From IMG/VR virus record IMGVR_UViG_3300027754_000003, positions 34,061-98,060 of that record: a stretch of DNA of 64,000 bases; one strand, given 5' to 3'. The stretch's first letter is position 1. The number at the start of each line of letters is the position of its first letter. The stretch is from a virus. Shown in pieces: positions 4,955 through 57,013 of the stretch. The notes below the pieces were generated by a model. It searched no databases. It was not told where the DNA came from and saw only the letters and a list, made by a program, of their open reading frames with translations. The position numbers were made by a program, and so were the translations under genes.

Positions 4955-5587
4955 TTATACAGGCTTACGGGTTTTACTTGTTTCGTACTCCTGAATGTAC
5001 GTGTGATACGGAGGACCCGTATGAGGGTCAAATCTAGCACTAACTGTCAGAGCCTTCAAAGCGTTAGTTTTAGCCTGTTGCACAGTTTGCTTCTTATTGT
5101 GCGTAAGTATTTGCATAGCCCCTAACGCATACTCACCACCAGAACCAATTACGTAAAGACCACTGGCTTCTGAAGCCCAAGCGTAATCACCATCAACGAT
5201 ATAAATAGTTCCATTAATGGCTACAAGGATTAACGACCCTTGCTCCGCAATATGTTCTTTATTCTCGTTGAGGTCGGGGATGGAGTATCCCTGAGCATCA
5301 AAGCATTCTCTGAGTGCTGGGATAAACTTCGCCGTAAAGAACTGGTCAAGTTTCTTCCCCTTAAGGTTTGGTGGTGGGGTCGGCGGTTGAAACACGTGAT
5401 GGAGAATGTTGATGGCTCGTACATCTCCAGCAGCACCAAGTAAATATTTTCCATTAGTTGATACCTTGCTGCTTCCTTCACGAAGCGTTCCTATTTGCGT
5501 GGCAATGCCCCCATCAATAGATGAGATACGAGAGTCCACACATACGACAGCGAAACCATCACCTTGGACAGCAACGATAGTAGTCAT
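4955..5587 (-). CDS. Proteasome beta-subunit/HslV-like N-terminal threonine protease
   Basis: Starts MTTIVAV..DSR; conserved Lys (SSKV), GAAGD, IGSGGEYALGA, D.HTG. Confidence 0.85.
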   Translation of the reverse strand: MTTIVAVQGDGFAVVCVDSRISSIDGGIATQIGTLREGSSKVSTNGKYLLGAAGDVRAINILHHVFQPPTPPPNLKGKKLDQFFTAKFIPALRECFDAQGYSIPDLNENKEHIAEQGSLILVAINGTIYIVDGDYAWASEASGLYVIGSGGEYALGAMQILTHNKKQTVQQAKTNALKALTVSARFDPHTGPPYHTYIQEYETSKTRKPV

Positions 5588-10603: not shown

Positions 10604-12169
10604 CTAATTGAAAAAGGGATTTTCGCCAACTTGAATAGTGGGCATGGCATCGTACACAGACATGGCACAGGCAAGAGCCAATGAGTCTGGGTAGTCGTCA
10701 AATGCGCCCTTCTCATTAGGGGCTTCAGCCAACATATATGGACCACGATAGACCTTTTCAAGGTCATTCATCTGCTGATTAAAGCGCTTCCATGAACGGG
10801 TACGGCGAGCCTTAGAGTGTCCTGGGATTACTAATTGCTCACGTTGAATCAATTCAGTTAGGTGTACCCAACGCTGGTTTTGATTTTTAGAGTCAGAAGT
10901 CATTGAAATCACTTCTATCTGGGGTAGCAAAATCTTAAGTCGTTCTGCCACAGCACCACCGACACCTTGTGAATCCACACCAATACGAAGAACATCGTAG
11001 TTTCTTAGGAAGTCAATGATTTGAAAATACTGCTGTTCCCATTCTTGGTCGTTGATTTCTAGCCAGTTAAGAATGCGGTGCTCGTAAAAACCAAAAGGGT
11101 CTGGATGGTCCCAGTCAACCCAGCAGACAGTTACTACGGTAGAGTCGTTTGAACGAGCAACGTCAATCCCCACTACTACAGGAGTACGCCACCACTGTTT
11201 TACCAACGGCATAGATGGGTCGTAAAGTCTTTCCATACGTTCCTCAGTGACGAACATTCCCTTTTCCAACATCCATCGGTTGCAATACGACATCTGAAAT
11301 TCGTCAGAGTCTTCACCAATGCGGAGTTTTTCTTTAGCAATAAACTTCCCATAGTTAGAGTTGTATTTAGAAGCAACTTTGTAGTCGTACTCAAAATGGC
11401 AATCTCGTATTACTTTCCTGCTTTGGTTAATACGCCGTTTGTTGTATTGAATCATCTTGTAGAAATAGGACTTGTTACGAGAAGCCGTTCCAGTGAGCAT
11501 GATGCTCCCGTTGTTAAACGCCAACATCGGCTTGATTGACTTGGTAATCATAAACTCATCGGCTTCCTGAGCCTCGTCAATAAGCACAAAGTGGTAGGTC
11601 TTTGACTCAATCTTTGCCTTTGGGTTACAGGTCTGCATTCGGCAGATAGAACCAGAGCGCTTCATGGTGATGATTTTTCCCTTACCACGAGTACCACCAG
11701 AGGTAGCCTTGTCATCTAGTTCAGGGTCAAGGAGAAAACCAAGAGCGTGGTCGCTAGTCAAACGACTGACAATACGGCTAAACACGGTGTCTGCTTGGTC
11801 TTCAGTTGGGGCAAATACTCCAACCCAGAAACCTTTTTCAAACTTAGATAACCACGTTGGATAGATGCCTGAAAGTTTTGGAAGGATAACCATCATTGAT
11901 GCAAGCACGTTGGAAAGCACTTCTGATTTACCAGATTGGCGAGTTGCAATTAAAGTTATTTCTTCACCGTCACCTAAGACAATGGACTCAATGATTCGGT
12001 ACGCAATAGGGATTTGGTACGGAAATAGTTCAACATTGCAAAATTGCTCGGTAAAGAGAACCAGTTTTGTAACTAACTGGTCAACAAATTCAGCCGAGGT
12101 TTCGTCAAGTTCCTCAACTAATTCTTCGGCTAGTAACTCTTGTTCTTGGTCCAATAGGGAATCCGACAT
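10604..12169 (-). CDS. terL: Terminase large subunit
   Basis: Walker A ATRQSGKS, Walker B VLIDEAQ, coupling motif TGT, nuclease motifs GIDVAR and DDYPDSLALA. Confidence 0.95.
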   Translation of the reverse strand: MSDSLLDQEQELLAEELVEELDETSAEFVDQLVTKLVLFTEQFCNVELFPYQIPIAYRIIESIVLGDGEEITLIATRQSGKSEVLSNVLASMMVILPKLSGIYPTWLSKFEKGFWVGVFAPTEDQADTVFSRIVSRLTSDHALGFLLDPELDDKATSGGTRGKGKIITMKRSGSICRMQTCNPKAKIESKTYHFVLIDEAQEADEFMITKSIKPMLAFNNGSIMLTGTASRNKSYFYKMIQYNKRRINQSRKVIRDCHFEYDYKVASKYNSNYGKFIAKEKLRIGEDSDEFQMSYCNRWMLEKGMFVTEERMERLYDPSMPLVKQWWRTPVVVGIDVARSNDSTVVTVCWVDWDHPDPFGFYEHRILNWLEINDQEWEQQYFQIIDFLRNYDVLRIGVDSQGVGGAVAERLKILLPQIEVISMTSDSKNQNQRWVHLTELIQREQLVIPGHSKARRTRSWKRFNQQMNDLEKVYRGPYMLAEAPNEKGAFDDYPDSLALACAMSVYDAMPTIQVGENPFFN

Positions 12170-12190
12170 ACCCTACAAGCCTACCTCACT

Positions 12191-12427
12191 TTAGAAAAGT
12201 GATAGTTGGTCAGGGTTATTAGGGGCAAATAGGCGGCGTTGTTCTTCCATTTCTTCCACTACCTTTTCTACCTGACGGAGAAAATCATGCATGTCTGCTG
12301 TGTCTGCAACTAGTCGGTAGTCAATTCTCTTTAGCAACCCATTGTGTGGGAATGCTTGAACACGAACCGCTAGGTCATTGGCTAACCCAATGGTTTGGTC
12401 CATCTTAAGTTCTTCAGGTGCTCTCAT
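12191..12427 (-). CDS. Hypothetical protein ending in NNPDQLSLF
   Basis: 78 aa ORF; C-terminus matches the beta-clamp-binding consensus QL[SD]LF. Confidence 0.6.
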   Translation of the reverse strand: MRAPEELKMDQTIGLANDLAVRVQAFPHNGLLKRIDYRLVADTADMHDFLRQVEKVVEEMEEQRRLFAPNNPDQLSLF

Positions 12428-12666
12428 TGTTTCCTACTCTCTAGTTCTGACCAAATTATTTGTAATGCTTCCACACAATCGCTAACTTCACTTGCAGGAG
12501 CATCTTTAAATCTCCAGGCATCAAAAGAAGCGCCTAAAGACATGATTGAATTATCCATCCAACCATACAAAGCGGAGTTGTCTAATTTAGAGGCTCGTTG
12601 CTGTGCCTTGCTTGGCGGAAGTTTATCATGTGATTTTTCTTCCTTTTTAAATATTCCTAGTGCCAC
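12424..12666 (-). CDS. Hypothetical protein
   Basis: 80 aa ORF overlapping its neighbours. Confidence 0.6.
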   Translation of the reverse strand: MALGIFKKEEKSHDKLPPSKAQQRASKLDNSALYGWMDNSIMSLGASFDAWRFKDAPASEVSDCVEALQIIWSELESRKQ

Positions 12667-12926
12667 TGCTTTATCTCCTCTACTGTTGTATCCATCTCAC
12701 GACCACCAAGAGCAAATAGTAGTCCTTCTCTTTCACCTTTGATGTTGTTCTTTTTGCATACTCCAAATTGTAATAAATACTTACCAAACTTTAATTGTGG
12801 TCCTTTACCTGTTCGCCAGTACCCACCAAGTTCTTGACATGTACCCATAGCAATATGCGGAATGTTGGGCGTACCTGTATTGCGAACAATCCAATAAAAA
12901 GACCAAAACCCACGAACTTTATTCAT
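12657..12926 (-). CDS. Hypothetical protein
   Basis: 89 aa ORF in operon. Confidence 0.6.
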   Translation of the reverse strand: MNKVRGFWSFYWIVRNTGTPNIPHIAMGTCQELGGYWRTGKGPQLKFGKYLLQFGVCKKNNIKGEREGLLFALGGREMDTTVEEIKQWH

Positions 12927-12944
12927 GGTTTTAGATACTAGCGG

Positions 12945-13505
12945 TTATTGCCAGTCAAGTGGGAGTTGACCCTGTCGTGTATCTTGTTTCTCAATACCAG
13001 GATAACCTTGATCTGCTTGTTGTTGGCTAAACGCACCGTGTTGTAGTTTTTTACCTAACGGGGTTGCTTGTTGCCTATTGAAGTGGTCTGGGTCGTAATC
13101 CACATAACCACCACTCATACCGCCAGTATTAAAAGTTTTACCCTTTGACAAGGCTTCGTAGAAACTTTTTGCTTGGTACACAGGGACATTGTTGAATACG
13201 TACTTGGTTGGGTTCTTCCTTCCCTTCTTTCCACGAAAGTCCATGTAGATATCCCCCACCATAGTTTCTGGGTTAAAGAAGTACTGGACAAAAGTAAAGC
13301 GAGTACTATCTTGTCCGTTGGTTCGTTCACCCAGCATGTCATCAGTTGCGTTATCCACGCCACCACTGTTGGCTACCCAAGGGTCAAAGCACTCTTCTCG
13401 GTTAAACAAGTTTTCTTTTGTTTGTTCATCAGAAAGGGCAAACGCCTGTAAAGAGTCCTTGATTCTTGCTTTACCAGCGTTTCCTAAACCTCGTGCTCTA
13501 GCCAT
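12945..13505 (-). CDS. KTSC-domain-like protein
   Basis: YVFNNVP.....F..A.SKGKTFN pattern; leaderless TATAAT 6 nt upstream. Confidence 0.65.
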   Translation of the reverse strand: MARARGLGNAGKARIKDSLQAFALSDEQTKENLFNREECFDPWVANSGGVDNATDDMLGERTNGQDSTRFTFVQYFFNPETMVGDIYMDFRGKKGRKNPTKYVFNNVPVYQAKSFYEALSKGKTFNTGGMSGGYVDYDPDHFNRQQATPLGKKLQHGAFSQQQADQGYPGIEKQDTRQGQLPLDWQ

Positions 13506-13542
13506 ACCCTAATTATAGATTACTTCCCTAAGAAGTAGTTTA

Positions 13543-14409
13543 TTACCTTTGTTCCCGTACAGCCCTTGCAATTCCTTCTTCAAGGGATATCTTTGGGGTG
13601 TAGAAAGAAAGCATTTTCGTAGGGTCGCAAACACGATATTGAACACCTTCTGGTGCTCCAATTATTCTTTCAAACTCAGGAGAGTAACCGCATTCAGTTG
13701 CTACTAAAGTTGCCAAGTCATTAAATGAGGTAACTCGCCCAAGCCCTAAGTTTACTGGACCTTGTATGTCTTGTTGTACGGCTTCTAATGTTGCCGCAAC
13801 AACGTCTTCCATGTGTATAAAATCTCTTACTTGGTTTCCTGAACCCCAAATTTTAAATGGATTTGCTTGCTCTACACCACGTTTAATAAAAGATGGGAAA
13901 GGGTAGTCAAGCGACTGGTCTTCTCCGTATCCAGAAAACGGTCTGAACACATGGACTCTTAGCCCTTCTTTTTCTGCATAACTTGCAAGCATCTCTCCAG
14001 TTAGTTTTGCCCAACCGTATGTGTAGTCAGGAGATTGAATGTTGTTTAAATCAATATCCGACTCAGTTAGGTGGTGCGTAGAACCATAATCTTGTAACTT
14101 TATTGGATAAGCAGCCGAAGAAGAATAATAAATAATCTTTCCTGGTTTTGTTCTTAACGCCCACTGAAACAATTCAGAATCAATTGCGAGGTCTACTGCG
14201 ACAGATAGTGGCTCGCCCTCTATGGTCGCCCTTCCTCCAACAATTGCCGCTAAGTGAACAACGAGGTCAAAGTGTGTTTCATCTGTTGCAAAAAACTTAC
14301 GAGCATCTATTCCGTTTTTTATGTCTACACCTGTGATGTCGTGACCATCAAGCGCTTTGTGGAAATATCCCCCAACAAACCCTGCATCGCCAGTAATAAG
14401 AATTTTCAT
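13543..14409 (-). CDS. NAD-dependent nucleotide-sugar epimerase/dehydratase
   Basis: ITGDAGFVG, HLAA, SSSAAY, YGWAK (YxxxK), RDFIHMED. Confidence 0.93.
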   Translation of the reverse strand: MKILITGDAGFVGGYFHKALDGHDITGVDIKNGIDARKFFATDETHFDLVVHLAAIVGGRATIEGEPLSVAVDLAIDSELFQWALRTKPGKIIYYSSSAAYPIKLQDYGSTHHLTESDIDLNNIQSPDYTYGWAKLTGEMLASYAEKEGLRVHVFRPFSGYGEDQSLDYPFPSFIKRGVEQANPFKIWGSGNQVRDFIHMEDVVAATLEAVQQDIQGPVNLGLGRVTSFNDLATLVATECGYSPEFERIIGAPEGVQYRVCDPTKMLSFYTPKISLEEGIARAVREQR

Positions 14410-35430: not shown

Positions 35431-35745
35431 TTACTTTTTACCTTTACCTTTGCCACCAGTCTTCTTTGGGAAGTCGTGACCAATCTCAGCCATTTTTCTA
35501 CGTACAAGACTTTCCATGTTTTTTACGGCACGGTGGTCTGAAGGGGTACTAGCCATGTGGACAACCCCGTCACCTTTGATGCGAAGTTGGATGTGACCGC
35601 TTTGGGTCTTGTGACCCATCACAGGGGTGCTTCCTTGCCCTACACGGGACAACATCTCACGAAAGGGCTTGTCGGTGGTCAAACTACGGACACGGTCTTC
35701 ATTAAGAGCGTGTTGGTCCCAATTAAGATGCTCTTCTGTACCCAT
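35431..35745 (-). CDS. HicA-like (dsRBD-fold) small protein carrying the N-terminal EHLNWDQ peptide
   Basis: SGHIQL....GVV...STPSD.RA..N pattern. Confidence 0.5.
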   Translation of the reverse strand: MGTEEHLNWDQHALNEDRVRSLTTDKPFREMLSRVGQGSTPVMGHKTQSGHIQLRIKGDGVVHMASTPSDHRAVKNMESLVRRKMAEIGHDFPKKTGGKGKGKK

Positions 35746-35757
35746 GCATAGATTGTA

Positions 35758-36003
35758 CTACTCTCTAGGCATACGGTACGGGAGAATGTCCTCCATGCGC
35801 TTGAGGGCTTCATCAAACTCTTCTGGGGTGCTGAAGACACGGATTACGTGCATGCAAGGGTCAGCCCCATCTTCCATCTCGTTTTCTTCTTCGTCTGTGG
35901 TTGGGATACCATCGTGCATGTAACAGGTTGGATACAGACACCATTTGTTGTCAACCCCCATTGCCAACCATGTGTCAAAGTCAAGTTCTTCTTTGTTTGT
36001 CAT
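35758..36003 (-). CDS. Hypothetical protein with Cys/His motifs
   Basis: WC.YPTCYMHDG.P....DPCMH; AAGGA SD. Confidence 0.65.
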   Translation of the reverse strand: MTNKEELDFDTWLAMGVDNKWCLYPTCYMHDGIPTTDEEENEMEDGADPCMHVIRVFSTPEEFDEALKRMEDILPYRMPRE

Positions 36004-36013
36004 CTTTGTTCCT

Positions 36014-36172
36014 TTACTTCATTACGGATAGTGTTACCTGATATTCACCATACTCTGGCTGGTCAATCGCAGTAACCATGACTGAACTAAAGCCTTGGTT
36101 GTGAGCGAGTATAACAGCCTGTTCCTTTGCGTCAAGCATCTGAGGCGTATTTATTGTGTAGGTGATTACCAT
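36014..36172 (-). CDS. Small hypothetical protein, 52 aa (not in ORF track)
   Basis: MVITYTINTPQMLDAKEQAVILAHNQGFSSVMVTAIDQPEYGEYQVTLSVMK; TAGGAT 6 nt upstream. Confidence 0.55.
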   Translation of the reverse strand: MVITYTINTPQMLDAKEQAVILAHNQGFSSVMVTAIDQPEYGEYQVTLSVMK

Positions 36173-36187
36173 ATCTAAATCCTATCG

Positions 36188-36340
36188 TCAGTAGTCGTAC
36201 TTTGAAAACTTCTTTATCTTCTTTTTTTCTTTGCGGTCATTTGAAGATTTGCGGTTTTCTTTATGAATGTGGTAATCCTCGTACGACTCATCCTCTTCAT
36301 CGGGAAACTGCGAACTTAGATTATTATTTTTTTGGTTCAT
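36188..36340 (-). CDS. Small charged protein, 50 aa, with NLSSQF peptide (not in ORF track)
   Basis: MNQKNNNLSSQFPDEEDESYEDYHIHKENRKSSNDRKEKKKIKKFSKYDY. Confidence 0.55.
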   Translation of the reverse strand: MNQKNNNLSSQFPDEEDESYEDYHIHKENRKSSNDRKEKKKIKKFSKYDY

Positions 36341-36455
36341 CTGTTTTACGGAACAACTCGGAAAGTCGCTGTTCTACACGAGCATCACGGGTTGTAACCA
36401 ATTCACGGAAGCGTTGCTTACCGTATTCTCCTAAACCATTTTGAAAGTCTGTCAT
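36324..36455 (-). CDS. Small hypothetical protein, 43 aa (not in ORF track)
   Basis: MTDFQNGLGEYGKQRFRELVTTRDARVEQRLSELFRKTDEPKK; TATGGT 7 nt upstream. Confidence 0.45.
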   Translation of the reverse strand: MTDFQNGLGEYGKQRFRELVTTRDARVEQRLSELFRKTDEPKK

Positions 36456-36477
36456 GTCCCCTACCATAGCAGTTTTG

Positions 36478-37881
36478 TTAGAACTTAAACATACTGGACC
36501 AAGGGTCCGATTTTTCCCTTGCTCTTATAGCCTTATTATGTGCTTTTGCTTTTTGTTGTCTTTCAAAGGCAGGGTCGTCACGGGTAAGTTGTTTTTTACT
36601 CAATGGTTTTGGCATTGGGTTTGCGGCGGCATTAACATTAAGTTCATCGTATGCCTCCATTCCTGGAAGGGTGTTTTGAACACCAATGCCTCTTGCTGAA
36701 ACACGTTCATTATCAACGCTTAAACTTAATGAATTATCAACAGACCCAGCACCTAATCTTTCCACAAGGTCTAATGCTTCATTTTTTGCTTCCCTAACCC
36801 GTACTGGGGTGTTTGCAACATGGTGTCTGTAAAAGGCTTGCGAATAGTTAGAAACATCACCTAATCCCATTGATTCTAATTGACCATGTATTGCAGGGTT
36901 TTCATGGGTTAATTGACCTAGGTAAAGATGACGAGCAGCAGTTTGGTATTCAGGCTGTTCTTCTAGTGGTTTAACAGACCCACTTTTATTTGATTTTATT
37001 AATGCCGCCCTCTTTTTTTCTTTTATTTCCTTACCTAAACCTCCTAAGTGAGTTTTAGCAAGTTCAGTCATATCAGGTAGTGTTTCTAGAGCAGATTTAC
37101 CGCCAGTTGCTACATGCAGACGAGTAGCAGCGTATAAAGCCATTTCATGCTTATCTTTCCACCCTCTAAAGTCAGCGTGATAACCACCTGTTGAATTTGC
37201 CATCCATAGGTCGTTAAACCTTCCTGGATTTTGTGCTGGGTCAAGTGTGGGCTCACGCCTTTTTGGTGTTCCACTATCCCAACCTGGTTGTTCTGCGTAG
37301 CGGTCAGTGTACGCATCAGCAGCACCTTCAAGAATTGGTGAGGTAACTGTTCTTGTTCTTCCTGACCCTTTTTCTGCTGCATTTATTTCAAGAGACTTTG
37401 CGCTTCTACGGCTTCCTGTTCTTTCTTTTGATACATCAAAATCTTCTTTATGACCCATTTCGTGGGCAAAGGAACCAGGACCAGTATTATGCGTGTCATT
37501 ATTAGAACTTAATTGTATTTTGTGAGCACCAATCTCGTATCTTCCTGCTTTAACAGATGAAGATGTCATTGTTGTTGCATTAATTTTGTTAGGGTCTTTT
37601 AACCCAGCGACACTTGGGCTCATTACGTGTGTTGGCATATCCGTATTTTCGGCATAACTAACTGCAAGTTTTGAAGATGTGTTTAGCGCTTTAGAAATAT
37701 CACTACGGCGTTTTTCTTGTGGGTATGTTGGGTCATCTGAGGTCATAGTCCCTGTTGCAGGGTGAAACAACATTCCTTGGGGATTTTCCCATTGTTGATA
37801 AGGGTGTACAAAATCTTGAGTTTCCCCACCACCATCAGGGGTAAAGTAGGTGTTATTGAACTGTGAACCAAGAGTAGGCAT
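36478..37881 (-). CDS. Zincin-like metallopeptidase domain protein (paralog A)
   Basis: FAHEMGH plus downstream EGAAD; starts MPTLGSQFNNTY; PQGMLF. Confidence 0.65.
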   Translation of the reverse strand: MPTLGSQFNNTYFTPDGGGETQDFVHPYQQWENPQGMLFHPATGTMTSDDPTYPQEKRRSDISKALNTSSKLAVSYAENTDMPTHVMSPSVAGLKDPNKINATTMTSSSVKAGRYEIGAHKIQLSSNNDTHNTGPGSFAHEMGHKEDFDVSKERTGSRRSAKSLEINAAEKGSGRTRTVTSPILEGAADAYTDRYAEQPGWDSGTPKRREPTLDPAQNPGRFNDLWMANSTGGYHADFRGWKDKHEMALYAATRLHVATGGKSALETLPDMTELAKTHLGGLGKEIKEKKRAALIKSNKSGSVKPLEEQPEYQTAARHLYLGQLTHENPAIHGQLESMGLGDVSNYSQAFYRHHVANTPVRVREAKNEALDLVERLGAGSVDNSLSLSVDNERVSARGIGVQNTLPGMEAYDELNVNAAANPMPKPLSKKQLTRDDPAFERQQKAKAHNKAIRAREKSDPWSSMFKF

Positions 37882-37887
37882 GACTAA

Positions 37888-39528
37888 TTATAGACCAGGT
37901 AATTCTGGCTGTTCATAAACGTCACGCTTCATACCCTTCATGCTTCCTTTTCCTCGCATTGCAGAAGGGTCTGCTACTCGTGACATGTACGTTTCATGTG
38001 CTGTTTTAGCAGTTTTACCAAAACCAAGTTCATTTAGTACAGGGCGAACATGTGGCATATGTTCGTACATATGACCAAGCATTAGTTTTGTTGTTGGTAT
38101 TTCAATATTGTTATAGGAATGGGAACGATTAAATAATGTGTCTCCCAATTCTTTGCGGTTTTTCATTCCTTCTATTCGCTCAGGGTGTGCTGCTACGTGA
38201 AAACGAACAGCAGAATAAAGCGCTCGTTCTTCTGCATTCCACCTACCAAAGGTAGACGAATACCCAGTCGTACTAATATCTTTTGCACGTAGTTGTGGGT
38301 TAGTCAAATGCTTTTCAAATTGACCAGAATAGTGATGCGCCCTGTCGGATAAAGAATCTGCATACCCTTCACTAACTGGGTCATAGATGGCTATATCTAT
38401 CCCACGCCTACCTTTACTGAAGATGTCTCTTTGGTTCTCATCTCCATAAGGTTCTGTTGTGTGACCCAACTCGTGAGCAAGGGTATTAGCGTTGGCTTCG
38501 TACCCGCTTATGTTAGTACTGTGCTTATACGTGATTTTAGGTGGTTTTGTTGTATCTGGCTCATACCGTGAATGCCATGTTTGGTAGGTATACCCAAAAC
38601 CAAAGTTTTCTGGCAAGTAACCACTTTCAATTTCAATCTTTTTACCAACTGCGTGTTTTTTACCACTCTCTCCTTTAGTCGGGTACACGTTTGGTCGGTA
38701 GTTATTGTCTTTCAACCAATCCATTGCTTCAATCTCAGATACACCAAACCCACCATTAACACTTTCAATATGGTCAAATGGTTTACCTTGAATCGTGTGT
38801 CCCTCATCATTTGTCCAATGGACATCTTTTTCACCAACAAGTGAATGAATATCCCCAGGGTGTTGAACTTTCTTTCTGTATTGTGACCAAAAATTCTTAT
38901 TTGGAATAGGTTTGTCAGATGGTTCGTGTGTTGATATTTCTTCTACAACATCTGTTTTCCTTTGGCGAACCCCAACAACAATTTCGTCACCACCACGTGC
39001 ATTTGCCCAACCTGCATTCCATTCGGTTGGTTTAGTGGTAACACCTTTACCTTGTTCATACATATGTGTTGGTATATCTAAATTATTTGCTGCGTTTGCA
39101 AGTGCTACATTTTTTTCGTACCTAGTCTTAGTATCACCATAATTTGGTAAATTCTTGCGATAAGGTTTTTTAGCCACAAACCGTTCATGGGAACTATTGT
39201 AAGCATCTATTTCTTTGTTTTTTTGTATTCTGGCATCTGCTTGCTGTTGAAGTTCATCCATGCCCATTAGACGCAATGTTTTGTTAATAGCGCCCATTCG
39301 TTGCTCAGTAGGAATAGTTGGGTCGTCTTTTAGCCCCGTATAAGAGTGTGGGCTAAACAACATCCCTTGTGGACTATCAGATGTACCAAAACCATCAGCA
39401 ATTTGAGGAGTACGTTGTTCTTTTGTGGGCAATTCACCTTCTGGAGTAGCCAACTCTGTAGAAGACATAACAGACTTTGACTTGGGGTCTTCCCAGTATG
39501 TGTTGCTAAATTGCGGTCCTAAAGGCAT
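37888..39528 (-). CDS. Zincin-like metallopeptidase domain protein (paralog B)
   Basis: LAHELGH plus downstream EGYAD; starts MPLGPQFSNTY; PQGMLF; ALY.A.R.HVA shared with paralog A. Confidence 0.65.
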   Translation of the reverse strand: MPLGPQFSNTYWEDPKSKSVMSSTELATPEGELPTKEQRTPQIADGFGTSDSPQGMLFSPHSYTGLKDDPTIPTEQRMGAINKTLRLMGMDELQQQADARIQKNKEIDAYNSSHERFVAKKPYRKNLPNYGDTKTRYEKNVALANAANNLDIPTHMYEQGKGVTTKPTEWNAGWANARGGDEIVVGVRQRKTDVVEEISTHEPSDKPIPNKNFWSQYRKKVQHPGDIHSLVGEKDVHWTNDEGHTIQGKPFDHIESVNGGFGVSEIEAMDWLKDNNYRPNVYPTKGESGKKHAVGKKIEIESGYLPENFGFGYTYQTWHSRYEPDTTKPPKITYKHSTNISGYEANANTLAHELGHTTEPYGDENQRDIFSKGRRGIDIAIYDPVSEGYADSLSDRAHHYSGQFEKHLTNPQLRAKDISTTGYSSTFGRWNAEERALYSAVRFHVAAHPERIEGMKNRKELGDTLFNRSHSYNNIEIPTTKLMLGHMYEHMPHVRPVLNELGFGKTAKTAHETYMSRVADPSAMRGKGSMKGMKRDVYEQPELPGL

Positions 39529-39544
39529 GGTTAATTATAAACCA

Positions 39545-39718
39545 TTATCCTCCGTTGGAATAAAAGCCTCTACCTACAAGATTTACTGCTGGAGAGAAGT
39601 AAACAGGGCGCAACTTCTCATTACAGTCTGGACACAGACTTGTCTTCTGCTCATCGTAGATACTGCGAGTTTCCTCGTGACGATGGTTGTTTGGGCATTT
39701 ATAAGCGTATGTTGGCAT
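39545..39718 (-). CDS. FmdB-family zinc-ribbon protein, 57 aa (not in ORF track)
   Basis: MPTYAYKCPNNHRHEETRSIYDEQKTSLCPDCNEKLRPVYFSPAVNLVGRGFYSNGG. Confidence 0.85.
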   Translation of the reverse strand: MPTYAYKCPNNHRHEETRSIYDEQKTSLCPDCNEKLRPVYFSPAVNLVGRGFYSNGG

Positions 39719-39724
39719 ACTTCA

Positions 39725-39732
39725 ACTATAAT
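39725..39732. promoter_or_regulatory. Overlapping divergent -10 boxes for leaderless genes
   Basis: TATAAT (+, 39727-39732) 6 nt before ATG 39739; TATAGT (-, 39725-39730) 6 nt before ATG 39718. Confidence 0.65.
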
Positions 39733-39738
39733 TGATAA

Positions 39739-40104
39739 ATGGCGGCGCATGAGAGCATAAATGATAAGCAATTCTTTCATGGGACTACTTTTCGCTTTGG
39801 TCACATCAAAGCAGGTGACCACATTAGACCAGGGGTAGAAATTGATGCAGAACCGTACCATGATGCAGAGATGTTCCCTGAAGCAAGGCATTGGGCGCAT
39901 GCCACCCCGTTTTTATCTGCTGCTCGTAACTACGCTGAGTGGAATGCCAATGGTGACCATGAAAATGCTGCTGAGTACGACAACTATGAACCGCATGTGT
40001 TTCAAGTAGAGCCTGTAGGGGAAGCAATGCAAGACCCAAGACACCTTGCTGGTATTCGTGCAAAGAGACTTCGTGTAATACGAAGAGTGCTACCTGACGA
40101 ATAA
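39739..40104 (+). CDS. ADP-ribosyltransferase, Arr (rifampin ADP-ribosylase)-like fold
   Basis: FFHGT....GD.I.PG, HAT.....A..YA, VFQVEPVG....DP, LRVI. Confidence 0.75.
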   Translation: MAAHESINDKQFFHGTTFRFGHIKAGDHIRPGVEIDAEPYHDAEMFPEARHWAHATPFLSAARNYAEWNANGDHENAAEYDNYEPHVFQVEPVGEAMQDPRHLAGIRAKRLRVIRRVLPDE

Positions 40105-40118
40105 CCTATACTTGTTTT

Positions 40119-40607
40119 ATGCCACGAGAGCCACGAGACACACATAACAAGGAATACCCCCTTGAAAAACTAAGTCAGGTTCAATTTCGTTATTTGTACG
40201 ACAAACCCATTAGTCCTGGCGGAATGCATAGAATTAATGTTCAAGCAAGGCATTATTACCCTGCCAATAAAAAAGACCCCACAACAGGGAAATTGGTGGA
40301 AGATGCAAGTGGCAACCATGTACAAGTAGCAAAACAAAACACTTTCCACGATGCTGGGCATATGGACTGGGATGGTTCTGGGAAACTAGAAGAAATCCAC
40401 GTTGATACCAACTTTAGAAGGAAGGGTGTGGCTACAAAGATGTGGAATGTTGCCAAAGCATATTCTGCTACAAGTTCTGGTGCAATACCGCACCCAACAC
40501 ACTCTAATGAAAGAACGCTTGAAGGTGACCAATGGGCAAAGAGCACAGGTGACCCTGTACCCAAAAATGAACACCCAAGTAATTGGCCTGATGCTGAGTG
40601 GGAATAA
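40119..40607 (+). CDS. GNAT acetyltransferase
   Basis: IHVDTNFRRKGVATKMW acetyl-CoA motif; TATACT 6 nt upstream. Confidence 0.8.
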   Translation: MPREPRDTHNKEYPLEKLSQVQFRYLYDKPISPGGMHRINVQARHYYPANKKDPTTGKLVEDASGNHVQVAKQNTFHDAGHMDWDGSGKLEEIHVDTNFRRKGVATKMWNVAKAYSATSSGAIPHPTHSNERTLEGDQWAKSTGDPVPKNEHPSNWPDAEWE

Positions 40608-41011
40608 TGGCTAAAGAACACCTTTACGGCGAACAATTACAGATGTTCATGCCTGCCCGTGACTTGATGAGCGTACCTGCTGGGGACTCATGGCCCATAC
40701 TCATAGGTCACGAAAGAAGCCCTTACCCTGATGGTTTAAAGTTCCTAAAATCAATGTCTGAAGACAAGCGTACATACAACTCCAAAATTTATGACGCAAA
40801 ACAGTTAAATCGGAAAACAAACACGACATTGGAAGAAAGCATCAAAGAAAGAGGCGTAGAAGAACCTGTGTCTATAACCCACATTAAACAGTTTCCACAT
40901 AAGATGATTGCAGATGGGCATCACAGAATTGCTGTAGCGCACTCTTTAGACCCAAATATGGAGATTCCAGTAAAACATCACGCAAGTAAGTTCTGGGATG
41001 AGGAACAGTAA
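40607..41011 (+). CDS. Standalone ParB/Sulfiredoxin-like domain protein
   Basis: L.ESIKERGV..PV, IADGHHR; no HTH; TAATG-coupled to the GNAT gene. Confidence 0.8.
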   Translation: MAKEHLYGEQLQMFMPARDLMSVPAGDSWPILIGHERSPYPDGLKFLKSMSEDKRTYNSKIYDAKQLNRKTNTTLEESIKERGVEEPVSITHIKQFPHKMIADGHHRIAVAHSLDPNMEIPVKHHASKFWDEEQ

Positions 41012-41541
41012 TGGCATTAAATCCTGACCAATTTGTAACCGTTTATCGTGGTTTATCGGGTATAGACCACCCCGATGGTCTTGACCCTGAATTGATTGGT
41101 CCCCATTGGACACACATTAAAGAAGCAGCACAAGGTTTTGCTGGAAAAACAGGTTCGGTAGTTACTGCACAAGTTAATAAAAAACACTTGTTGCAAGATA
41201 GTAGCACTGGTGAAACCCACCCTGACTTATTGCACAATTATGGAATGGGATATGACATTGTGCATAAAGTATTCCCAGATGATACGGAGATGGAAACATT
41301 TGTCCAACCTGGCAACAAAGTACATATTACGCATATGGAAACGCACCCTAACAACCCAATTCGGGATAAGTGGGAGTTTAACCCCCCAATGGTTAGAGAC
41401 AGTACAAAACTATGGGCGTACACTGCAAAACCAGATGATGGACCTGAACCTGATTGGAATGTTAGTAAAAACGACCCTGAGTACGATTATAAAACAACAC
41501 ACCCTGGAGATGTTGTTGAATGGCACAAAGGAGAAGATTAG
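41011..41541 (+). CDS. Putative ADP-ribosyltransferase-fold protein
   Basis: TVYRGL, IGPHWT....A..FA, ExE (EME) before the final strands. Confidence 0.55.
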   Translation: MALNPDQFVTVYRGLSGIDHPDGLDPELIGPHWTHIKEAAQGFAGKTGSVVTAQVNKKHLLQDSSTGETHPDLLHNYGMGYDIVHKVFPDDTEMETFVQPGNKVHITHMETHPNNPIRDKWEFNPPMVRDSTKLWAYTAKPDDGPEPDWNVSKNDPEYDYKTTHPGDVVEWHKGED

Positions 41542-41581
41542 CCCTTTCAACGGCAAATTTTTTACCATCTATAATTAGTAA

Positions 41582-41755
41582 GTGGACCCTAGACACGAAA
41601 GCCCCCAATTCCGTTGGAAATCTAATACCAACCCTAAAGGGCATACCTATGTAGACGGAGAGGCTGTCAACATAGACGACCTCCATCAAGCAGCAGGGTT
41701 TACCAAGCGTGACCCACAATACCTTCTAGAGAAGCGTAAAGCAAAGAAGAAGTAA
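41582..41755 (+). CDS. Small basic protein, 57 aa, with HESPQF peptide (not in ORF track)
   Basis: MDPRHESPQFRWKSNTNPKGHTYVDGEAVNIDDLHQAAGFTKRDPQYLLEKRKAKKK; TATAAT 6 nt upstream; TAATG overlap with next gene. Confidence 0.65.
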   Translation: MDPRHESPQFRWKSNTNPKGHTYVDGEAVNIDDLHQAAGFTKRDPQYLLEKRKAKKK

Positions 41756-42180
41756 TGGCTGCACACGAACATTTAAACCCTGACCAACTTAAGGGTATAG
41801 CCGAAGCACATGGTGCTAAGTACTTTGCCAACTATCAAGACCCAGAGAAGCGTGACCGAGGCATGTGTTATGAGTATTCAGACCATTTTGGAAATTACAG
41901 TGGGATAAAAGGAGTACACAGTAAGAGTTGGGATATGGATGGCGGTGGTCATTCAATGAGCGTTGTTCCAACCACTCAAGGACCTCACGCAGTAGATTTT
42001 ACGTATATACAGTACGATAAAACAGCAAAAATGCCTATTGTTGAACATTTAGATGCTTATCGTGCTCGTGCTCATAGGGACCATAAAGAACCAAATGAAG
42101 ACCCTAAAAGGTATAAACCAGAGCACATTGATGAACACATCTACCCAAGCATGGACTGGAAACACGGGGACCCACTGTAA
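41755..42180 (+). CDS. Papain/transglutaminase-like Cys-His-Asp triad protein
   Basis: GMCYEYS, GGGH, VDFT..QYD in the canonical order and spacing. Confidence 0.6.
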   Translation: MAAHEHLNPDQLKGIAEAHGAKYFANYQDPEKRDRGMCYEYSDHFGNYSGIKGVHSKSWDMDGGGHSMSVVPTTQGPHAVDFTYIQYDKTAKMPIVEHLDAYRARAHRDHKEPNEDPKRYKPEHIDEHIYPSMDWKHGDPL

Positions 42181-42527
42181 TGGCGGCTCAAGAGCACTTA
42201 AGCGGTCAGTTGTCTATGTTCATCCCTGCACGGGAACTGATGGACTACACCGCAGGGCATACCGAGGGCTTTGGCGACAAGTACCTACTTTTGTCTGAGT
42301 CCCCTGGGGTTATCAGAGAAAAGTTGCAAGAATCTAAAGAAAAGTCATCATCGGGTCGCTACGGCAGTAAAGATAGCCTTCACGACAGTATTAGAAAAGA
42401 AGGTGTTAAATACCCAATAGCACTACGTATCCGTAAAAATGGCGTACAAATCAATGATGGTCACCACCGAGTCGTATCGGCACATGACATCAACCCAAAT
42501 ATGGAAGTACCAGTGAGGTACATGTAA
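42180..42527 (+). CDS. Standalone ParB/Sulfiredoxin-like domain protein
   Basis: LHDSIRKEGV..PI, INDGHHR, NPNMEVPV. Confidence 0.8.
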   Translation: MAAQEHLSGQLSMFIPARELMDYTAGHTEGFGDKYLLLSESPGVIREKLQESKEKSSSGRYGSKDSLHDSIRKEGVKYPIALRIRKNGVQINDGHHRVVSAHDINPNMEVPVRYM

Positions 42528-42823
42528 TGGGTAAGCGTCTTACTGCACAACAAATCATGGATAACTACCAACCTGGGGATATGTTGCGTGAAGACACCCC
42601 TGAAACCTTCTGGGCAGGCAAGTTAGAATCTGCTAAAACTACTAAAGTATCTGAGGACAAGACTTTGTACCAAGACCTTGAAGAGCGTGGTCAACAGAAG
42701 CCAGTCACTATTGGCTATAAGGGGTTTGGGTCACCGTCTATCTTAGATGGTCATCACCGTTTAGCAGCATTACACCACATGAACCCTAACCAGTTTGTGA
42801 AATACCGAAGGGTAACCCCGTAG
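42527..42823 (+). CDS. Standalone ParB/Sulfiredoxin-like domain protein
   Basis: LYQDLEERGQQKPV, ILDGHHRLAA. Confidence 0.8.
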   Translation: MGKRLTAQQIMDNYQPGDMLREDTPETFWAGKLESAKTTKVSEDKTLYQDLEERGQQKPVTIGYKGFGSPSILDGHHRLAALHHMNPNQFVKYRRVTP

Positions 42824-42988
42824 TACTAAATTTAGAGCGAAATTTAGTACAAACAGTAGCCTACTGAAGTCGGAATAGATGTGAAATAAGCCTATGTATG
42901 GGCAAAATTGATGTGTGTGTCCAATTTTTTGGGGTGGGTCTATCTAGTGGGGTGGTGCGTATTGGCTAGTGGGGGCTCCACCCCTCAC

Positions 42989-43128
42989 AACCCTCAACCT
43001 CTACTAAAGGGTGGGGGGGTCTAACCCTCAACTAGAGAGTTAGGGTTAGAGTTTGCCCAAGTCTCAACCACTACTAGAGGGTTCATCCACCGTGTATACC
43101 CCATAGTCTCTACCTACAGTAGAGGGTT
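42989..43128. repeat. Four imperfect palindromic repeats in the non-coding strand-switch region
   Basis: aaccctcaacctctactaaagggt (42989), aaccctcaactagagagttagggtt (43023), ctcaaccactactagagggtt (43063), ctctacctacagtagagggtt (43108). Confidence 0.7.
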
Positions 43129-43412
43129 ATACCATGTGGTTTAGTGTTTGGGCGAATCCTTACTGGGCATGGAGCAACGCTCAACAACGCATTAGGAGGC
43201 TCTAGGAGCGTTTGGGATGGCGTAATAGCCCAGATACAGCACTACCCCGTCTGCATCGCTCTACGAGGCTCTACGTGGGCAATCCATGCCTACTTCTGGG
43301 TCTATGGCTGGGGCATGAATCGGTATCGGGGACTAGGTGGAGCATTAGCCCTATGCCACGTGTGCCAGTAGCAACTATTCGCTGGCACAGCACCAGAACG
43401 CTCCAGATGCTC

Positions 43413-43661
43413 CTACACGCTCCAGACCGCTACAGACTCACCATTCAGCGTTACCGACTCCAGAACACGCTCACGCATCCCTACGGCATACTCCAGCGAC
43501 TCCAGATGCTCCTGTATTCCCTCCATGATGAGGATGATGTCCATGACTCCAGATGGTGAATGTCGGGCGATTCTGCACGAGTACTCAGCCAGACTCACCA
43601 GCACCATCTGGGCATCCAGTCTTTGCTCCTCGGTGTACGTGTCCACGTCATGTATGAGCAT
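43413..43661 (-). CDS. Hypothetical protein
   Basis: 82 aa helical ORF, last gene of the minus-strand early block. Confidence 0.5.
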   Translation of the reverse strand: MLIHDVDTYTEEQRLDAQMVLVSLAEYSCRIARHSPSGVMDIILIMEGIQEHLESLEYAVGMRERVLESVTLNGESVAVWSV

Positions 43662-43903
43662 CCTTCGGTATCAGAGTGTCAAGTATCTGGGCGAAAAAAT
43701 GGCTTTAGCGGCGAGATGAAATCATCAATAAAAATGGGGCTTATTTGCAGGCCGTATTCACGTCAATGGAATGCAGTTGTCACGAGCATTCGACCCACGT
43801 CATTCAATGAATCCAGTATGAATTGCCATGACTCATCATCCATGAGCATTCATTCCAGAGGCTTAGAACGCCTCCTATCGCCTGTAAATCTGGGCATAAA
43901 TGC

Positions 43904-43939
43904 AAAAAACCCCGATACCCATCAATCTGGGTATCGGGG
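43904..43939 (-). terminator. Intrinsic terminator
   Basis: ccccgataccca-gattga-tgggtatcgggg followed by tttttt on the minus strand. Confidence 0.85.
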
Positions 43940-43958
43940 CTCGTGCAGAGCGATTGAC

Positions 43959-49453: not shown

Positions 49454-50263
49454 TTACCGCCATCCCTTGCCAAAGTCACGAGCGTTCTTCCAGATGGTGG
49501 AGGACTCTGGTACTTCCATTGCTTTGACTGCGTGAAGTTGTCGCATGACCTGCTGGCGAATCATCGTGTTCATCGCTTGGGCGAGTGCTTGCGTGAACTC
49601 TGTTTCTGACAGCATGGACATGACAATCTTTTTGAAATCAAAGTTCTTCATTTCATCTTGAACCATTTCTTTGAAATCCATTTCATCAATTTCATCCTGT
49701 ACTACTTCGCTGAAGTCGTAACCTCGGATTTCATCTTGAATGGTTTCGCTGAAGTCAAAGTTTGAAACTTCTCTGCTAATCATCATGTCCATTTCAGAGT
49801 TTGATGCTTTGCTGTCTTCCAACTCTGCAACCTGTGCTTCAAGCGCATCAATTCTGTTGCAAAGATTGTTCAACCACTCTGGTGCTTCTGGAACAATCTC
49901 TTCATCTTGTGATGCTGAGTTAGACACATCTTTGAATTGGAATGGATTCAAGTGGTCAATTTCCAGATGAGTTTTGTAAATCTTTTCTGGATTCACTTTG
50001 GTGTAGTACTCCAAGTACGAAGACATTACAGAAACTCGCATTCCATTTGGCAGTCTCAACATCTCCCAACCTTCAACAGCGTCACCTGCATCAGCAAGTG
50101 TGTACGCACCATCAATCCAGTTTGCTGGAAGAAGTGTGTTCGTTCCTGTTGTCGTTGCTGGAATGAGTAAGTCGCTGTCACCAGTCCAATGAACAACTCG
50201 TACGTAGAGTCGCTCATTTTCTGGAAGGTCATCTGCGATGTTCCAATCAGTTTGAATGTTCAT
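49454..50263 (-). CDS. Hypothetical protein with acidic 12-residue repeats
   Basis: [FYM]DF[SK]E.[IV]QDE[IM] repeats after a coiled coil. Confidence 0.6.
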   Translation of the reverse strand: MNIQTDWNIADDLPENERLYVRVVHWTGDSDLLIPATTTGTNTLLPANWIDGAYTLADAGDAVEGWEMLRLPNGMRVSVMSSYLEYYTKVNPEKIYKTHLEIDHLNPFQFKDVSNSASQDEEIVPEAPEWLNNLCNRIDALEAQVAELEDSKASNSEMDMMISREVSNFDFSETIQDEIRGYDFSEVVQDEIDEMDFKEMVQDEMKNFDFKKIVMSMLSETEFTQALAQAMNTMIRQQVMRQLHAVKAMEVPESSTIWKNARDFGKGWR

Positions 50264-50265
50264 GT

Positions 50266-50700
50266 TTACTTTCCTTCTTTCGTTGTCCAATGGGTTTTGA
50301 TTTCATCTTTGATTGCGGTGGTAAATGTATCCCACATATAGTCCGAGTTCAAACATCCAGCGAACGATTCCAAATCTTCTTTTGGCAATCCAGCGAAATA
50401 CTTTGCTTTTTCTGTTTCATCTTCGCTGAAGTAGAACGCTGAGTTCTCTTGCAACTCTTGTTGAATTGCAACTGGACTAAATGCAATGGAGTTTGAGTAA
50501 TTCAAATCCCCGTAACCGCATCCTTCAAGCATTGGCTCCAACTCTTTACCCAGTTGTTCTGCGAGTTCCAATACATCTCCATCGCCACCTTGAAAGATTT
50601 CTTCTTGGTCTTGCTCCGAGAGTTCATCTACATCAACGATGACGCAATGTTCAACGTACAGAATTGTTCCAGATTGCTGGCAAATAATAATCTTTGACAT
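50266..50700 (-). CDS. Acidic hypothetical protein
   Basis: 144 aa ORF in the early block. Confidence 0.6.
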   Translation of the reverse strand: MSKIIICQQSGTILYVEHCVIVDVDELSEQDQEEIFQGGDGDVLELAEQLGKELEPMLEGCGYGDLNYSNSIAFSPVAIQQELQENSAFYFSEDETEKAKYFAGLPKEDLESFAGCLNSDYMWDTFTTAIKDEIKTHWTTKEGK

Positions 50701-51843: not shown

Positions 51844-52151
51844 TCTTCTTCTCCTCTTGCTACATCAAGACAAAGCAATGCAACGCTTGCATCGGTATCA
51901 ATTTCTTGAATCGTTTGCCCGTTCCATTCAACAGCGTGATATGGGTACGCAGTTGCTCGCATGAATGGTTCTCCATACACCGAGATGTTGATGTCCCATT
52001 CCCCACCGCCGAGTGCATCTGGGATTGTTACACCTTGCCATTCGTCAAAGTCACCGTAGAACACCTTCTGTTCACGAATCGCTTTCTCTGCCAAATGCAA
52101 TGCTTCTTCTGTGAGATAGTGAACTAACTCTTCGCTTTTTGTCAAGAACAT
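51840..52151 (-). CDS. Hypothetical protein
   Basis: GGAGG SD; coupled ORF. Confidence 0.6.
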   Translation of the reverse strand: MFLTKSEELVHYLTEEALHLAEKAIREQKVFYGDFDEWQGVTIPDALGGGEWDINISVYGEPFMRATAYPYHAVEWNGQTIQEIDTDASVALLCLDVARGEEE

Positions 52152-52375
52152 ACTTCCTCCAAGTATTCCAAATCAATGTTGTATAAAATAACCGTGTGAC
52201 CTTCTGGAGCGTGAAACTTTACAAACGCTCCGTCAAACTCCTCTTCCATGTCTTCATTTACATTACAGACATATTTGAGTTTCGCAATATCCTCGTCACC
52301 ATAAAACTGGTTGGTGTTGAGTGCTGGAATCAGCAAATCGTCTGCAACTAAATCGGGGCGAACAATGTGTGGCAT
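52142..52375 (-). CDS. Hypothetical protein
   Basis: TAATG coupling to the upstream gene. Confidence 0.55.
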   Translation of the reverse strand: MPHIVRPDLVADDLLIPALNTNQFYGDEDIAKLKYVCNVNEDMEEEFDGAFVKFHAPEGHTVILYNIDLEYLEEVCS

Positions 52376-52881
52376 TAGAAGTGAAAATCCCACATAACAA
52401 CGAATTGTTCTTCTGGCTTTGCAACAACACGATTGCGGAAGTCTTTCAAGTTTGTGCTGTGGTACTCAATATCAAATACTTGTGAGTGTGAGCAGTAACC
52501 TTCGGACTCAACAATTTTGAGTGCCTTCTTTGCTCGGTACACCGCCAAGTAATCGTCACCAAAGTAGTCTTTGTCATCAGACTGATTTTTTCTGCCAATG
52601 CTTACAAGTTCGGAAATGGTGTAATTACCAACTTGGTCAATAAGTCGTTCAAGTTCCTGTTCCATTCCTTCTTGCCATTCTTTGATTTTCTTTTCAAAGA
52701 GTTCTTCATTGCCTTTGTAACAGAGAATGTTTGAACCATCAAACTCTCCATCCCATCTTCCGCCGATTTCGCTCCAGTCTGACCAACCGTTCTGAGCGTA
52801 CGATTCAACGAAATCATTTACTTTGTATTCTGCTTCTTTTTTGTCAGTTGCTTGAACTAACAGAATGTGTCCGATGTGCAT
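52375..52881 (-). CDS. Hypothetical protein (DW..IGGRW family)
   Basis: MH..H.L, WSDWSEIGGRWDG, C-terminal V..DFH. Confidence 0.7.
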   Translation of the reverse strand: MHIGHILLVQATDKKEAEYKVNDFVESYAQNGWSDWSEIGGRWDGEFDGSNILCYKGNEELFEKKIKEWQEGMEQELERLIDQVGNYTISELVSIGRKNQSDDKDYFGDDYLAVYRAKKALKIVESEGYCSHSQVFDIEYHSTNLKDFRNRVVAKPEEQFVVMWDFHF

Positions 52882-56599: not shown

Positions 56600-57013
56600 T
56601 TATTCCGCTAACAACCCCTGTAGAAGTATTTTTAGGTCGGGAAGTGCTTCTCCCATAAGGGGAACAGAATCTATATCTATTTCTTTGCGTAATGGTCGTG
56701 ATGTGTGAGCCCAATCGCATTCATTACAAGAGCAACCTTGACGGAAGCGCACAACAGTTCCATGTTCAGCAAGATTATTTGTTGTGTCTTTTTGAAGAGG
56801 TATACGTTCTTGTGGTGTTAGTCCGCCCCACACTCCGAATGTTTCTTTTCTTCCTATTGATAGACAACTATCCCAAACAGGACAGACATTACAAACTTGT
56901 TTTGCAATGAGATAATTTATTTCTGGAGTTTGTGAGTCAAATGGTGGGAAGAAAATATCTCCATGCATTTTTCTGCACAGAGCATCTGACATCCATTCGG
57001 GAGTGTCTACCAC
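56600..57013 (-). CDS. whiB: WhiB-family regulator with C-terminal HGT...GCxCxxC extension
   Basis: WM..ALC, FFPP, C..CPV...CL, GVWGGLT..ER. Confidence 0.92.
   Translation of the reverse strand: MVDTPEWMSDALCRKMHGDIFFPPFDSQTPEINYLIAKQVCNVCPVWDSCLSIGRKETFGVWGGLTPQERIPLQKDTTNNLAEHGTVVRFRQGCSCNECDWAHTSRPLRKEIDIDSVPLMGEALPDLKILLQGLLAE

Follow-up and report, generated by a model that had tools for sequence, protein, structure and literature searches.

In bacteriophage T4, the internal proteins IPI-III and the ADP-ribosyltransferase (ART) Alt are unrelated, variable proteins that have in common a short peptide at their extreme N-terminus, the capsid-targeting sequence (CTS), which serves as a portable address for loading into the head and co-injection. 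The proteins of the phage P1 Dar system are large and assemble hierarchically, and no short tag is known to be common to many small enzymes there; DarB has an N-terminal packaging determinant. They are anti-defence proteins packaged in the head, and ParB and zincin domains are found among them (DdrB), according to the survey of polyvalent proteins (Iyer, Burroughs, Anand, de Souza, Aravind, 2017; PMC5512222). Here, we describe a block of small genes (positions 35431–42823) in a virus genome, many of whose products begin with variants of one short peptide, in the following called the tag. The analyzed window is a stretch of 64,000 nucleotides, bases 34061–98060 of the complete 98,060-bp IMG/VR record IMGVR_UViG_3300027754_000003, which has direct terminal repeats. 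A description of such a tag was not found in the literature searched.

The genome is myovirus-like, with genes for sheath, tube, baseplate, an SPP1-type portal, a scaffold and an HK97-type capsid protein, the closest cultured match of the latter being the capsid protein of Streptomyces phage BRock (approximately 60% identity). It also carries a WhiB-like gene (56600–57013), and lake actinophages are marked by WhiB genes and by their freshwater metagenome sources (PMC6802176). The tagged block is flanked by the fiber genes, which reach up to 35412 on the minus strand, and by the early region, which begins at 43959 on the same strand, and is a hypervariable accessory island of an uncultured freshwater actinophage.

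The N-terminal tag and its distribution

The tag is 8–12 residues long and is found, in a group of uncultured actinobacterial phages from lakes, at the extreme start of dozens of small, otherwise unrelated enzymes. It occurs in a long form, M-A-A-H-E-[HNS]-[LI]-[NS]-x-x-Q-[FL], and in a short form, M-[PA]-(x)-L-[GN]-x-Q-F. All N-termini quoted in the initial annotation of this DNA are present at their given starts, and ten of the tag starts are solid (35745, 36340, 37881, 39528, 39739, 40607, 41011, 41582, 41755, and 42180). For two further genes the proposal stands in part: the product of 40119 does contain the motif, but internally (residues 16–23), its homologue in locus L003 having it at residue 1 and other homologues lacking it, and the N-terminus of 42527 (L-T-A-Q-Q-I) is a marginal match only.

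Within the genome, the pattern [LIM][NSGYT]x0-2Q[FL] occurs in the first 14 residues of 7/15 block genes and of 2/134 other genes (Fisher 7.5e-7), and E-[HS]-[LI]-[NSY] in 5/15 against 0/134. Starts of the type [LI]-[NSG]-x(0-2)-Q-[FL] are found in 7–8/15 and 2–5/134, respectively. As these patterns were written after inspection of the data, and as the zincins and the ParB-like proteins of the block are paralogue pairs, the independent test lies in the genomes of relatives. Seven IMG/VR loci were recovered with zincin A of the block and five with the exact back-translated long-form start, all of them relatives, in which the flanks of the island show 80–96% protein identity to this genome and the gene content of the island differs. 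The corresponding island of L003, L004 and L008-L011 holds genes that are non-homologous and yet begin with the tag. A profile of the zincin family led to 31 further loci, from more distant lake phages (GC 39–52%), again with arrays of tagged small genes. Among the 1174 distinct products of open reading frames (ORFs) over all fetched loci, the core motif [LIMV][NSGH]x1-2Q[FLW] begins within the first 13 residues 118 times, as compared to 8.1 ± 1.9 in within-protein shuffles. The initial observation thus holds. When clustered with the first 16 residues masked, the tagged products form 44 families, a few of which are false positives, such as a conserved fiber N-terminus.

Elsewhere in the same products the motif is found internally 93 times (72 expected) and near the C-terminus 14 times (5.2 expected). 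The C-terminal copies proposed at first fare poorly one by one, as N-P-N-Q-F in 42527 is a ParB-family motif that aligns with the paralogues, and accounts for four of the 14 occurrences, and the copies in 8458 and 12191 are individually within chance; what is left is the small overall excess. Two early-region proteins have internal tag-like sequences, D-H-L-N-P-F-Q-F at residue 114 (49454–50290, minus strand) and A-L-N-T-N-Q-F at residue 25 (52142–52393, minus strand), which may be chance or internal tags.

The exact long-form start was met in only five viral stretches, all of this clade, and a scan of bacterial genomes gave three matches, all internal or chance and none of them a gene start. 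Cultured relatives were sought for the block, the ART and three zincins and none were found; BRock, the nearest cultured relative by capsid protein, has no array and no tags.

Several observations bear on the nature of the tag. Where residues of the tag are identical between different families, the same codon is used in 46.4% of cases, as compared to 45.5% predicted from the genomic codon usage. At this chance rate, it is the peptide and not the DNA that is under selection, and an origin at the DNA level (a recombination joint, a regulatory element or a recent duplication) was rejected on this ground. In an AlphaFold2 (AF2) model of the ART-fold protein 39739 (predicted local distance difference test, pLDDT, 62), residues 1–8 have a pLDDT below 50 and the chain is coil up to residue 11; the first strand starts from F12, which is the F of the Q-F of the tag and is followed by the invariant H-G-T motif. 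Likewise, residues 1–10 of the ParB/Srx-fold protein 42180 are disordered in its AF2 model (pLDDT 75; below 50 for the tag), with the first strand from residue 13. In these two modeled bodies, the tag is predicted to be a disordered extension in front of the fold that ends at the first strand. That the peptide could be an integral strand of each fold, named initially as an adverse outcome, was rejected for both of these bodies.

The tag is also modular, as it is present or absent within single families (1–2/4 of the GNAT-like proteins, 1/6 of an H-G-T family and 9/13 of the ParB-like proteins). The long and short forms are interchangeable, since the zincin relative P0154 bears the long form where other zincins bear the short one. 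The prefix is specific to the lineage and common to unrelated families within it. This clade has A-H-E-H-L, and two other lineages have A-E-D-N-L and A-[SI]-D-N-[IL], respectively. Lineage-specific prefixes, with synonymous sites saturated, suggest a reader that co-evolves with the tags and that would be either encoded by the phage or specific to the host lineage. We conclude that the tag is probably a selected, portable label, read by something that these proteins have in common.

The claim that the bodies behind the tag belong to different folds is supported for four types, the Arr-like ART fold, the ParB/Srx fold, a GNAT-like fold (matches below threshold) and HExxH zincins (by motif), and the other bodies have no assigned fold. 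For 39739, the top Foldseek matches of the modest AF2 model are the Arr rifampin ADP-ribosyltransferases 2hw2 and 9iaf (E 7e-4, probability 1.0), H14-G15 is invariant (the first ART motif, H-G-[ST]), and the Pfam model Arr-ms scores 17.4 bits, below its 25-bit cut-off; judged from sequence and model, the protein has an Arr-like ART fold. For 42180, Foldseek matches KorB, ParB, Noc and sulfiredoxin with probability 1.0; the ParB-like proteins (40607, 42180, and 42527) have invariant G94, H96 and R97 (D-G-H-H-R, a G-x-x-R-type motif) and match ParB models of PHROG. The GNAT assignment of 40119 rests on four models that match at E 0.002–0.025, all below their own cut-offs, and no sequence match was found in the PDB. 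The zincins (36478 and 37888) are recognized by an invariant motif, without a family assignment: both HExxH and an E-G-x-A-D farther downstream are conserved without exception in 34 diverse members. No confirmation was obtained for two labels of the initial annotation, papain-like (41755) and ART-like (41011). No fold was assigned to the body of 41755, for which a papain-like toxin domain is a weak lead only, and family and fold searches for 41011 and 35431 gave no assignment.

Destination of the tagged proteins

The most plausible reading, tentatively held and by analogy, is that the tag directs its bearers into the phage head. Many small enzyme genes of the island bear one portable N-terminal peptide, predicted to be disordered, which would serve for addressing or docking and be recognized by a single partner that is not the same in every lineage. 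The destination would be the procapsid, and the ready-made enzymes would travel in the virion and enter the host together with the DNA, in parallel to the T4 internal proteins and Alt. We infer that a single reader exists. With respect to the first interpretation of this block, the modular, portable label is supported, and the head would be its most plausible destination by analogy and gene context; docking on one common partner, which had been offered as an alternative, is equally compatible with the data.

The head is favored because of the types of cargo, the strict N-terminal position, the nearness to late genes and the restriction to genomes of lytic phages. ART, ParB, GNAT-like and zincin domains are the body types of polyvalent and injected effectors. 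Solo forms of such bodies lie among late structural genes, and the authors of the survey concluded that they are delivered by the capsid (PMC5512222). The island abuts the fiber genes, and its promoter type is shared with late clusters. A leaderless arrangement, TA[TC]AAT-N5-7-ATG, precedes 35412, 35745, 37881, 39528, 39739, and 41582, and is also found before 13505, 18589, and 62298; of these, 13505 (upstream of the terminase) and 35412 (fibers) are the first genes of late clusters. The initial statement that this promoter is shared with structural genes is accurate for these two first genes but not for the core structural genes, as capsid, scaffold, sheath and tube genes have AGGAG leaders.

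The same expression signals count among the points that weigh against loading into the head. The block genes are either leaderless, with a -10 element only, or coupled through TAATG, unlike the Shine-Dalgarno-led genes for capsid, scaffold, sheath and tube, and with such differing signals the timing of the block could be early. Furthermore, the logo anchored at the Q of the tag shows no L/I-x-E cleavage site after the tag and no likeness to the T4 CTS, and a search of the complete genome (E ≤ 1) gave no prohead protease of the S77 (T4-type) or S78 family; MuF was not found either. In one lineage the tagged arrays lie beside lysis genes and not head genes. Finally, a comparison with the tag-free BRock turned up no reader candidate that all tag-bearing genomes share and BRock lacks. 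A complex prediction with the capsid protein, the scaffold, an HslV-like protein and the first 32 residues of 41755 gave a score of 0.00, without controls, and is counted neither way.

The HslV-like protein is an Ntn hydrolase encoded two genes away from the portal (4955–5587, minus strand), with an invariant T-T-I start, an invariant catalytic Lys, a G-S-G motif and weak matches to HslV and BPH. It is the only recognizable protease of the head module, and may be a head-maturation protease. Phage homologues of the proteasome are known and their function is not (PMC8665760). The gene is present in G000, G001, G002, G004, G007, and G011. It was not found in the complete genome G008, a profile search included, even though a tagged zincin gene and one further gene with the tag are present there; as a universal reader the protease was therefore rejected. 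A zincin in this role was rejected as well, since the tag-rich genome G002 lacks one. Replication-module proteins confined to tag-bearing genomes comprise a MerR-type regulator, a DnaC-like loader and unknowns, and none of them is an obvious reader.

Among the alternatives to head loading, we consider it rather unlikely that the tag docks the enzymes onto a hub of the host in the infected cell, for instance the β sliding clamp, so that the effectors would be brought to host DNA or the replisome and not to the virion. The bacterial clamp-binding consensus is Q-L-[SD]-L-F. Directly before the large terminase gene lies a 78-aa ORF (12191–12427, minus strand) that ends in Q-L-S-L-F, a textbook clamp motif, preceded by a tag-like N-N-P-D. 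The tag of ParB-like proteins runs into Q-L-x-M-F, and zincins almost invariably have Q-G-[ML]-L-F within a linker of variable sequence. A phage-encoded clamp was sought and none was found, and the -10-only promoters would permit early expression by the host RNA polymerase. However, the generic tag shows no hydrophobic preference at +3/+4 after the Q, and the residues that follow Q-[FL] belong to the first strand of the fold; only the ParB-like proteins, the zincins and ORF 12191–12427 have a clamp motif in which the fourth and fifth residues are hydrophobic. Four of the nine matches to Q-x-x-[LM]-F in the genome lie in the block, yet they stem from only two independent families. A conserved hub of the host would also not account for lineage-specific prefixes or for the strict N-terminal position. 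Clamp binding is thus possibly a second address on some of the proteins and not the meaning of the tag.

The clamp theme touches on transcription as well. In T4, late transcription is coupled to the clamp through gp33/gp55 with gp45. Clamp-coupled late transcription was recently reported for phage Mu (PMC12867686). The clamp motif of ORF 12191–12427 and the -10-only promoters of the late clusters are reminiscent of both.

Doubtful to a similar degree is that the tag is a signal for processing or turnover, at which all the enzymes would be recognized or cleaved by one protease of the phage (the tagged zincin or the HslV-like threonine protease); this might cut after Q-[FL] and so activate, release or destroy them. 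Nearly all zincins themselves begin with the short tag, possibly as a pseudo-substrate or for self-cleavage, and zincins of polyvalent proteins have been proposed to process effectors (PMC5512222). The HslV-like gene, with invariant catalytic Thr and Lys, is present in most tag-rich genomes, where it adjoins the portal or a zincin gene, and no other prohead protease was found. Against this stand the lack of universality of either protease, as seen in G002 and G008, and the lack of a residue preference after the putative cut.

Less probable still is a small phage-encoded keeper or chaperone that would bind the tag and hold potentially toxic enzymes inactive or soluble until needed. The island contains small, highly conserved, untagged genes (for a zinc ribbon, 39545–39718, and for proteins of 81 and 52 aa) that could fill this role, and lineage-specific prefixes would fit a phage-encoded partner. 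These three genes were, however, not detected in the complete genome G008, and it is not evident how one protein bound to a disordered N-terminus could block active sites that differ from each other. Head loading and proteolysis might also be combined: after loading into the procapsid, the tagged enzymes would be freed by the HslV/proteasome-like threonine protease of the virion, cutting after Q-[FL]. The tag would in this case be a cargo code, legible in the sequence, of phages that have no classical prohead protease. We regard this version as improbable; if true, it would constitute a proteasome-type system for head maturation and cargo release, and injected effectors would be predictable from sequence alone. 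The weakest proposal, that there is no reader at all and the common start is a relic of common descent, a DNA recombination joint or a need of leaderless or coupled messages in translation initiation, is very improbable, since the chance-rate codon sharing largely refutes it and, although the five TAATG overlaps and several leaderless genes could constrain the first codons, the tag is found on leaderless and coupled genes alike, its conserved residues reach codons 8–12 and the bodies are of different folds.

Genes of the island and the zincin family

The minus arm starts, at its distal end, with a 104-aa protein (35431–35745) whose version of the tag is E-E-H-L-N-W-D-Q-H. No other tagged gene is as well conserved, with 94–96% identity in close relatives, and the motif is kept at 37–39% identity. 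It is followed by the conserved, untagged 81-aa and 52-aa proteins (35758–36003 and 36014–36172, both minus strand) and by a 50-aa acidic/basic protein (36188–36340, minus strand), in which the tag at residues 8–12 is kept in relatives. The two HExxH zincins, B (36478–37881) and A (37888–39528), also on the minus strand, have the short-form tag at residue 1, Q-G-M-L-F at residues 35 and 54, respectively, and a leaderless TATAAT promoter each. The 57-aa zinc-ribbon protein (39545–39718, minus strand; Pfam Zn_ribbon_8), untagged and highly conserved, is encoded at the point where the arms diverge. In the 20-bp intergenic region that follows (39719–39738), two -10 hexamers, TATAAT on the plus and TATAGT on the minus strand, overlap in a near-palindrome, each 6 nt from its own ATG, so that both divergent first genes would be leaderless.

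The plus arm opens with the 121-aa Arr-like ART-fold protein (39739–40104), which has the long-form tag, and the 162-aa GNAT-like protein with the internal motif (40119–40607). A ParB/Srx-like protein (40607–41011), whose start overlaps the preceding stop (TAATG), has the tag followed by Q-L-Q-M-F, and in the next, 176-aa protein (41011–41541) the short-form tag stands directly before a V-Y-R-G motif. A 57-aa tagged protein (41582–41755) has a GTG start and a leaderless TATAAT promoter. The arm continues with a 141-aa protein with a canonical long-form tag (41755–42180) and the 115-aa ParB/Srx-fold protein (42180–42527), in which the tag runs into Q-L-S-M-F. It ends with a 98-aa ParB-like protein (42527–42823), the one with the marginal N-terminal match and the ParB-family motif at its C-terminus. 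Five consecutive junctions between 40605 and 42529 (plus strand) are TAATG stop-start overlaps. These overlaps would couple translation along the plus arm, as if a polyprotein had been divided up in the RNA. Between the end of this arm and the last early gene lies approximately 1.1 kb (42824–43958) without a convincing ORF, with a strong terminator-like hairpin on the minus strand (43942–43907).

The zincin family comprises 178 representative clusters at 50% identity, with lengths of 59–740 aa (mostly 350–650, none giant), and no relative was found in Pfam, PHROG or the PDB. Nearly all members begin with M-[PA]-L-G-x-Q-F-x-N-T-Y-W and have the Q-G-[ML]-L-F motif approximately 20–120 residues in. 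The zincins (36478–39528; proteins P0007-P0156) appear to form an undescribed family with three conserved N-terminal motifs in a variable linker, the tag, Q-G-[ML]-L-F-x-P and D-P-x-x-P. In L042 and L046 a tagged zincin is flanked by the large terminase and the portal, a location that favors the head as destination, and in another lineage the zincin adjoins a CHAP endolysin and the HslV-like gene. The slot of the tagged zincin of L042 and L046 is occupied in the present genome by a 384-aa GP88-like protein of the head/lysis module (8458–9612, minus strand), which ends in a tag-like N-G-P-Q-F and has no homologue in G007, G008 or BRock. In L020, representing one lineage, at least four paralogues of an unassigned protein of approximately 240 aa (11123–14100, minus strand) stand in place of the zincins. 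Untagged, metabolic-looking genes also occur in the islands of relatives: a fatty-acid desaturase and a ferredoxin-like Cys-rich protein, the latter identified by eye only (L003 7264–8145, minus strand; L004 1066–1311, plus strand).

Comparison with known systems

Encapsulin cargo-loading peptides resemble the tag in that a short terminal peptide directs diverse enzymes inside a shell of HK97 fold. They are found mostly at the C-terminus and follow a consensus unlike that of the tag. The β-clamp motif Q-L-[SD]-L-F is likewise a short linear docking motif, with good matches in the ParB-like proteins, the zincins and ORF 12191–12427, whereas the generic tag lacks hydrophobic residues at positions 4–5 and is bound to the N-terminus. 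The likeness to P1 Dar lies in its head-packaged anti-defence proteins, which include ParB-type and zincin domains as do the tagged bodies here (PMC5512222).

Polyvalent proteins share with the island the same effector bodies (ART, ParB-type, GNAT, and zincin), the linkage to late or structural genes and the rapid variation (Iyer et al., 2017; PMC5512222). They differ in that one giant polypeptide is encoded there, and separate small, TAATG-coupled genes here. No fused polyvalent forms were found among the 178 zincin clusters, and no longer relatives of the ART were found, the latter being weak evidence. None of the PolyVal models of Pfam (ART-PolyVal, MPTase-PolyVal, and others) was matched by the bodies of the block in a Pfam scan at E ≤ 0.1. 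A shared short start is not described for polyvalent proteins in the passages of the survey consulted (PMC5512222).

Should the tag be an address label, it would point out a large set of mostly uncharacterized phage effectors in freshwater phage-host systems, some of them among the most abundant. This set comprises at least 44 families in the fetched loci, along with the zincin family, and injected or co-targeted proteins would be recognizable from their first dozen residues. The reader, once found, would show how phages coordinate many toxic enzymes by a single handle.

The T4 CTS offers the closest parallel to such a label, being a short peptide at the extreme N-terminus of unrelated, variable proteins, one of them an ADP-ribosyltransferase. 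It differs from the tag in sequence, in its L/I-x-E site and S77 protease, which have no counterpart here, and in host phylum and phage lineage. If it is an address label, the tag would join the T4 CTS as a second and independent case of cargo addressed by a peptide, in a different phage lineage and host phylum, and such a short tag might serve to load foreign proteins.

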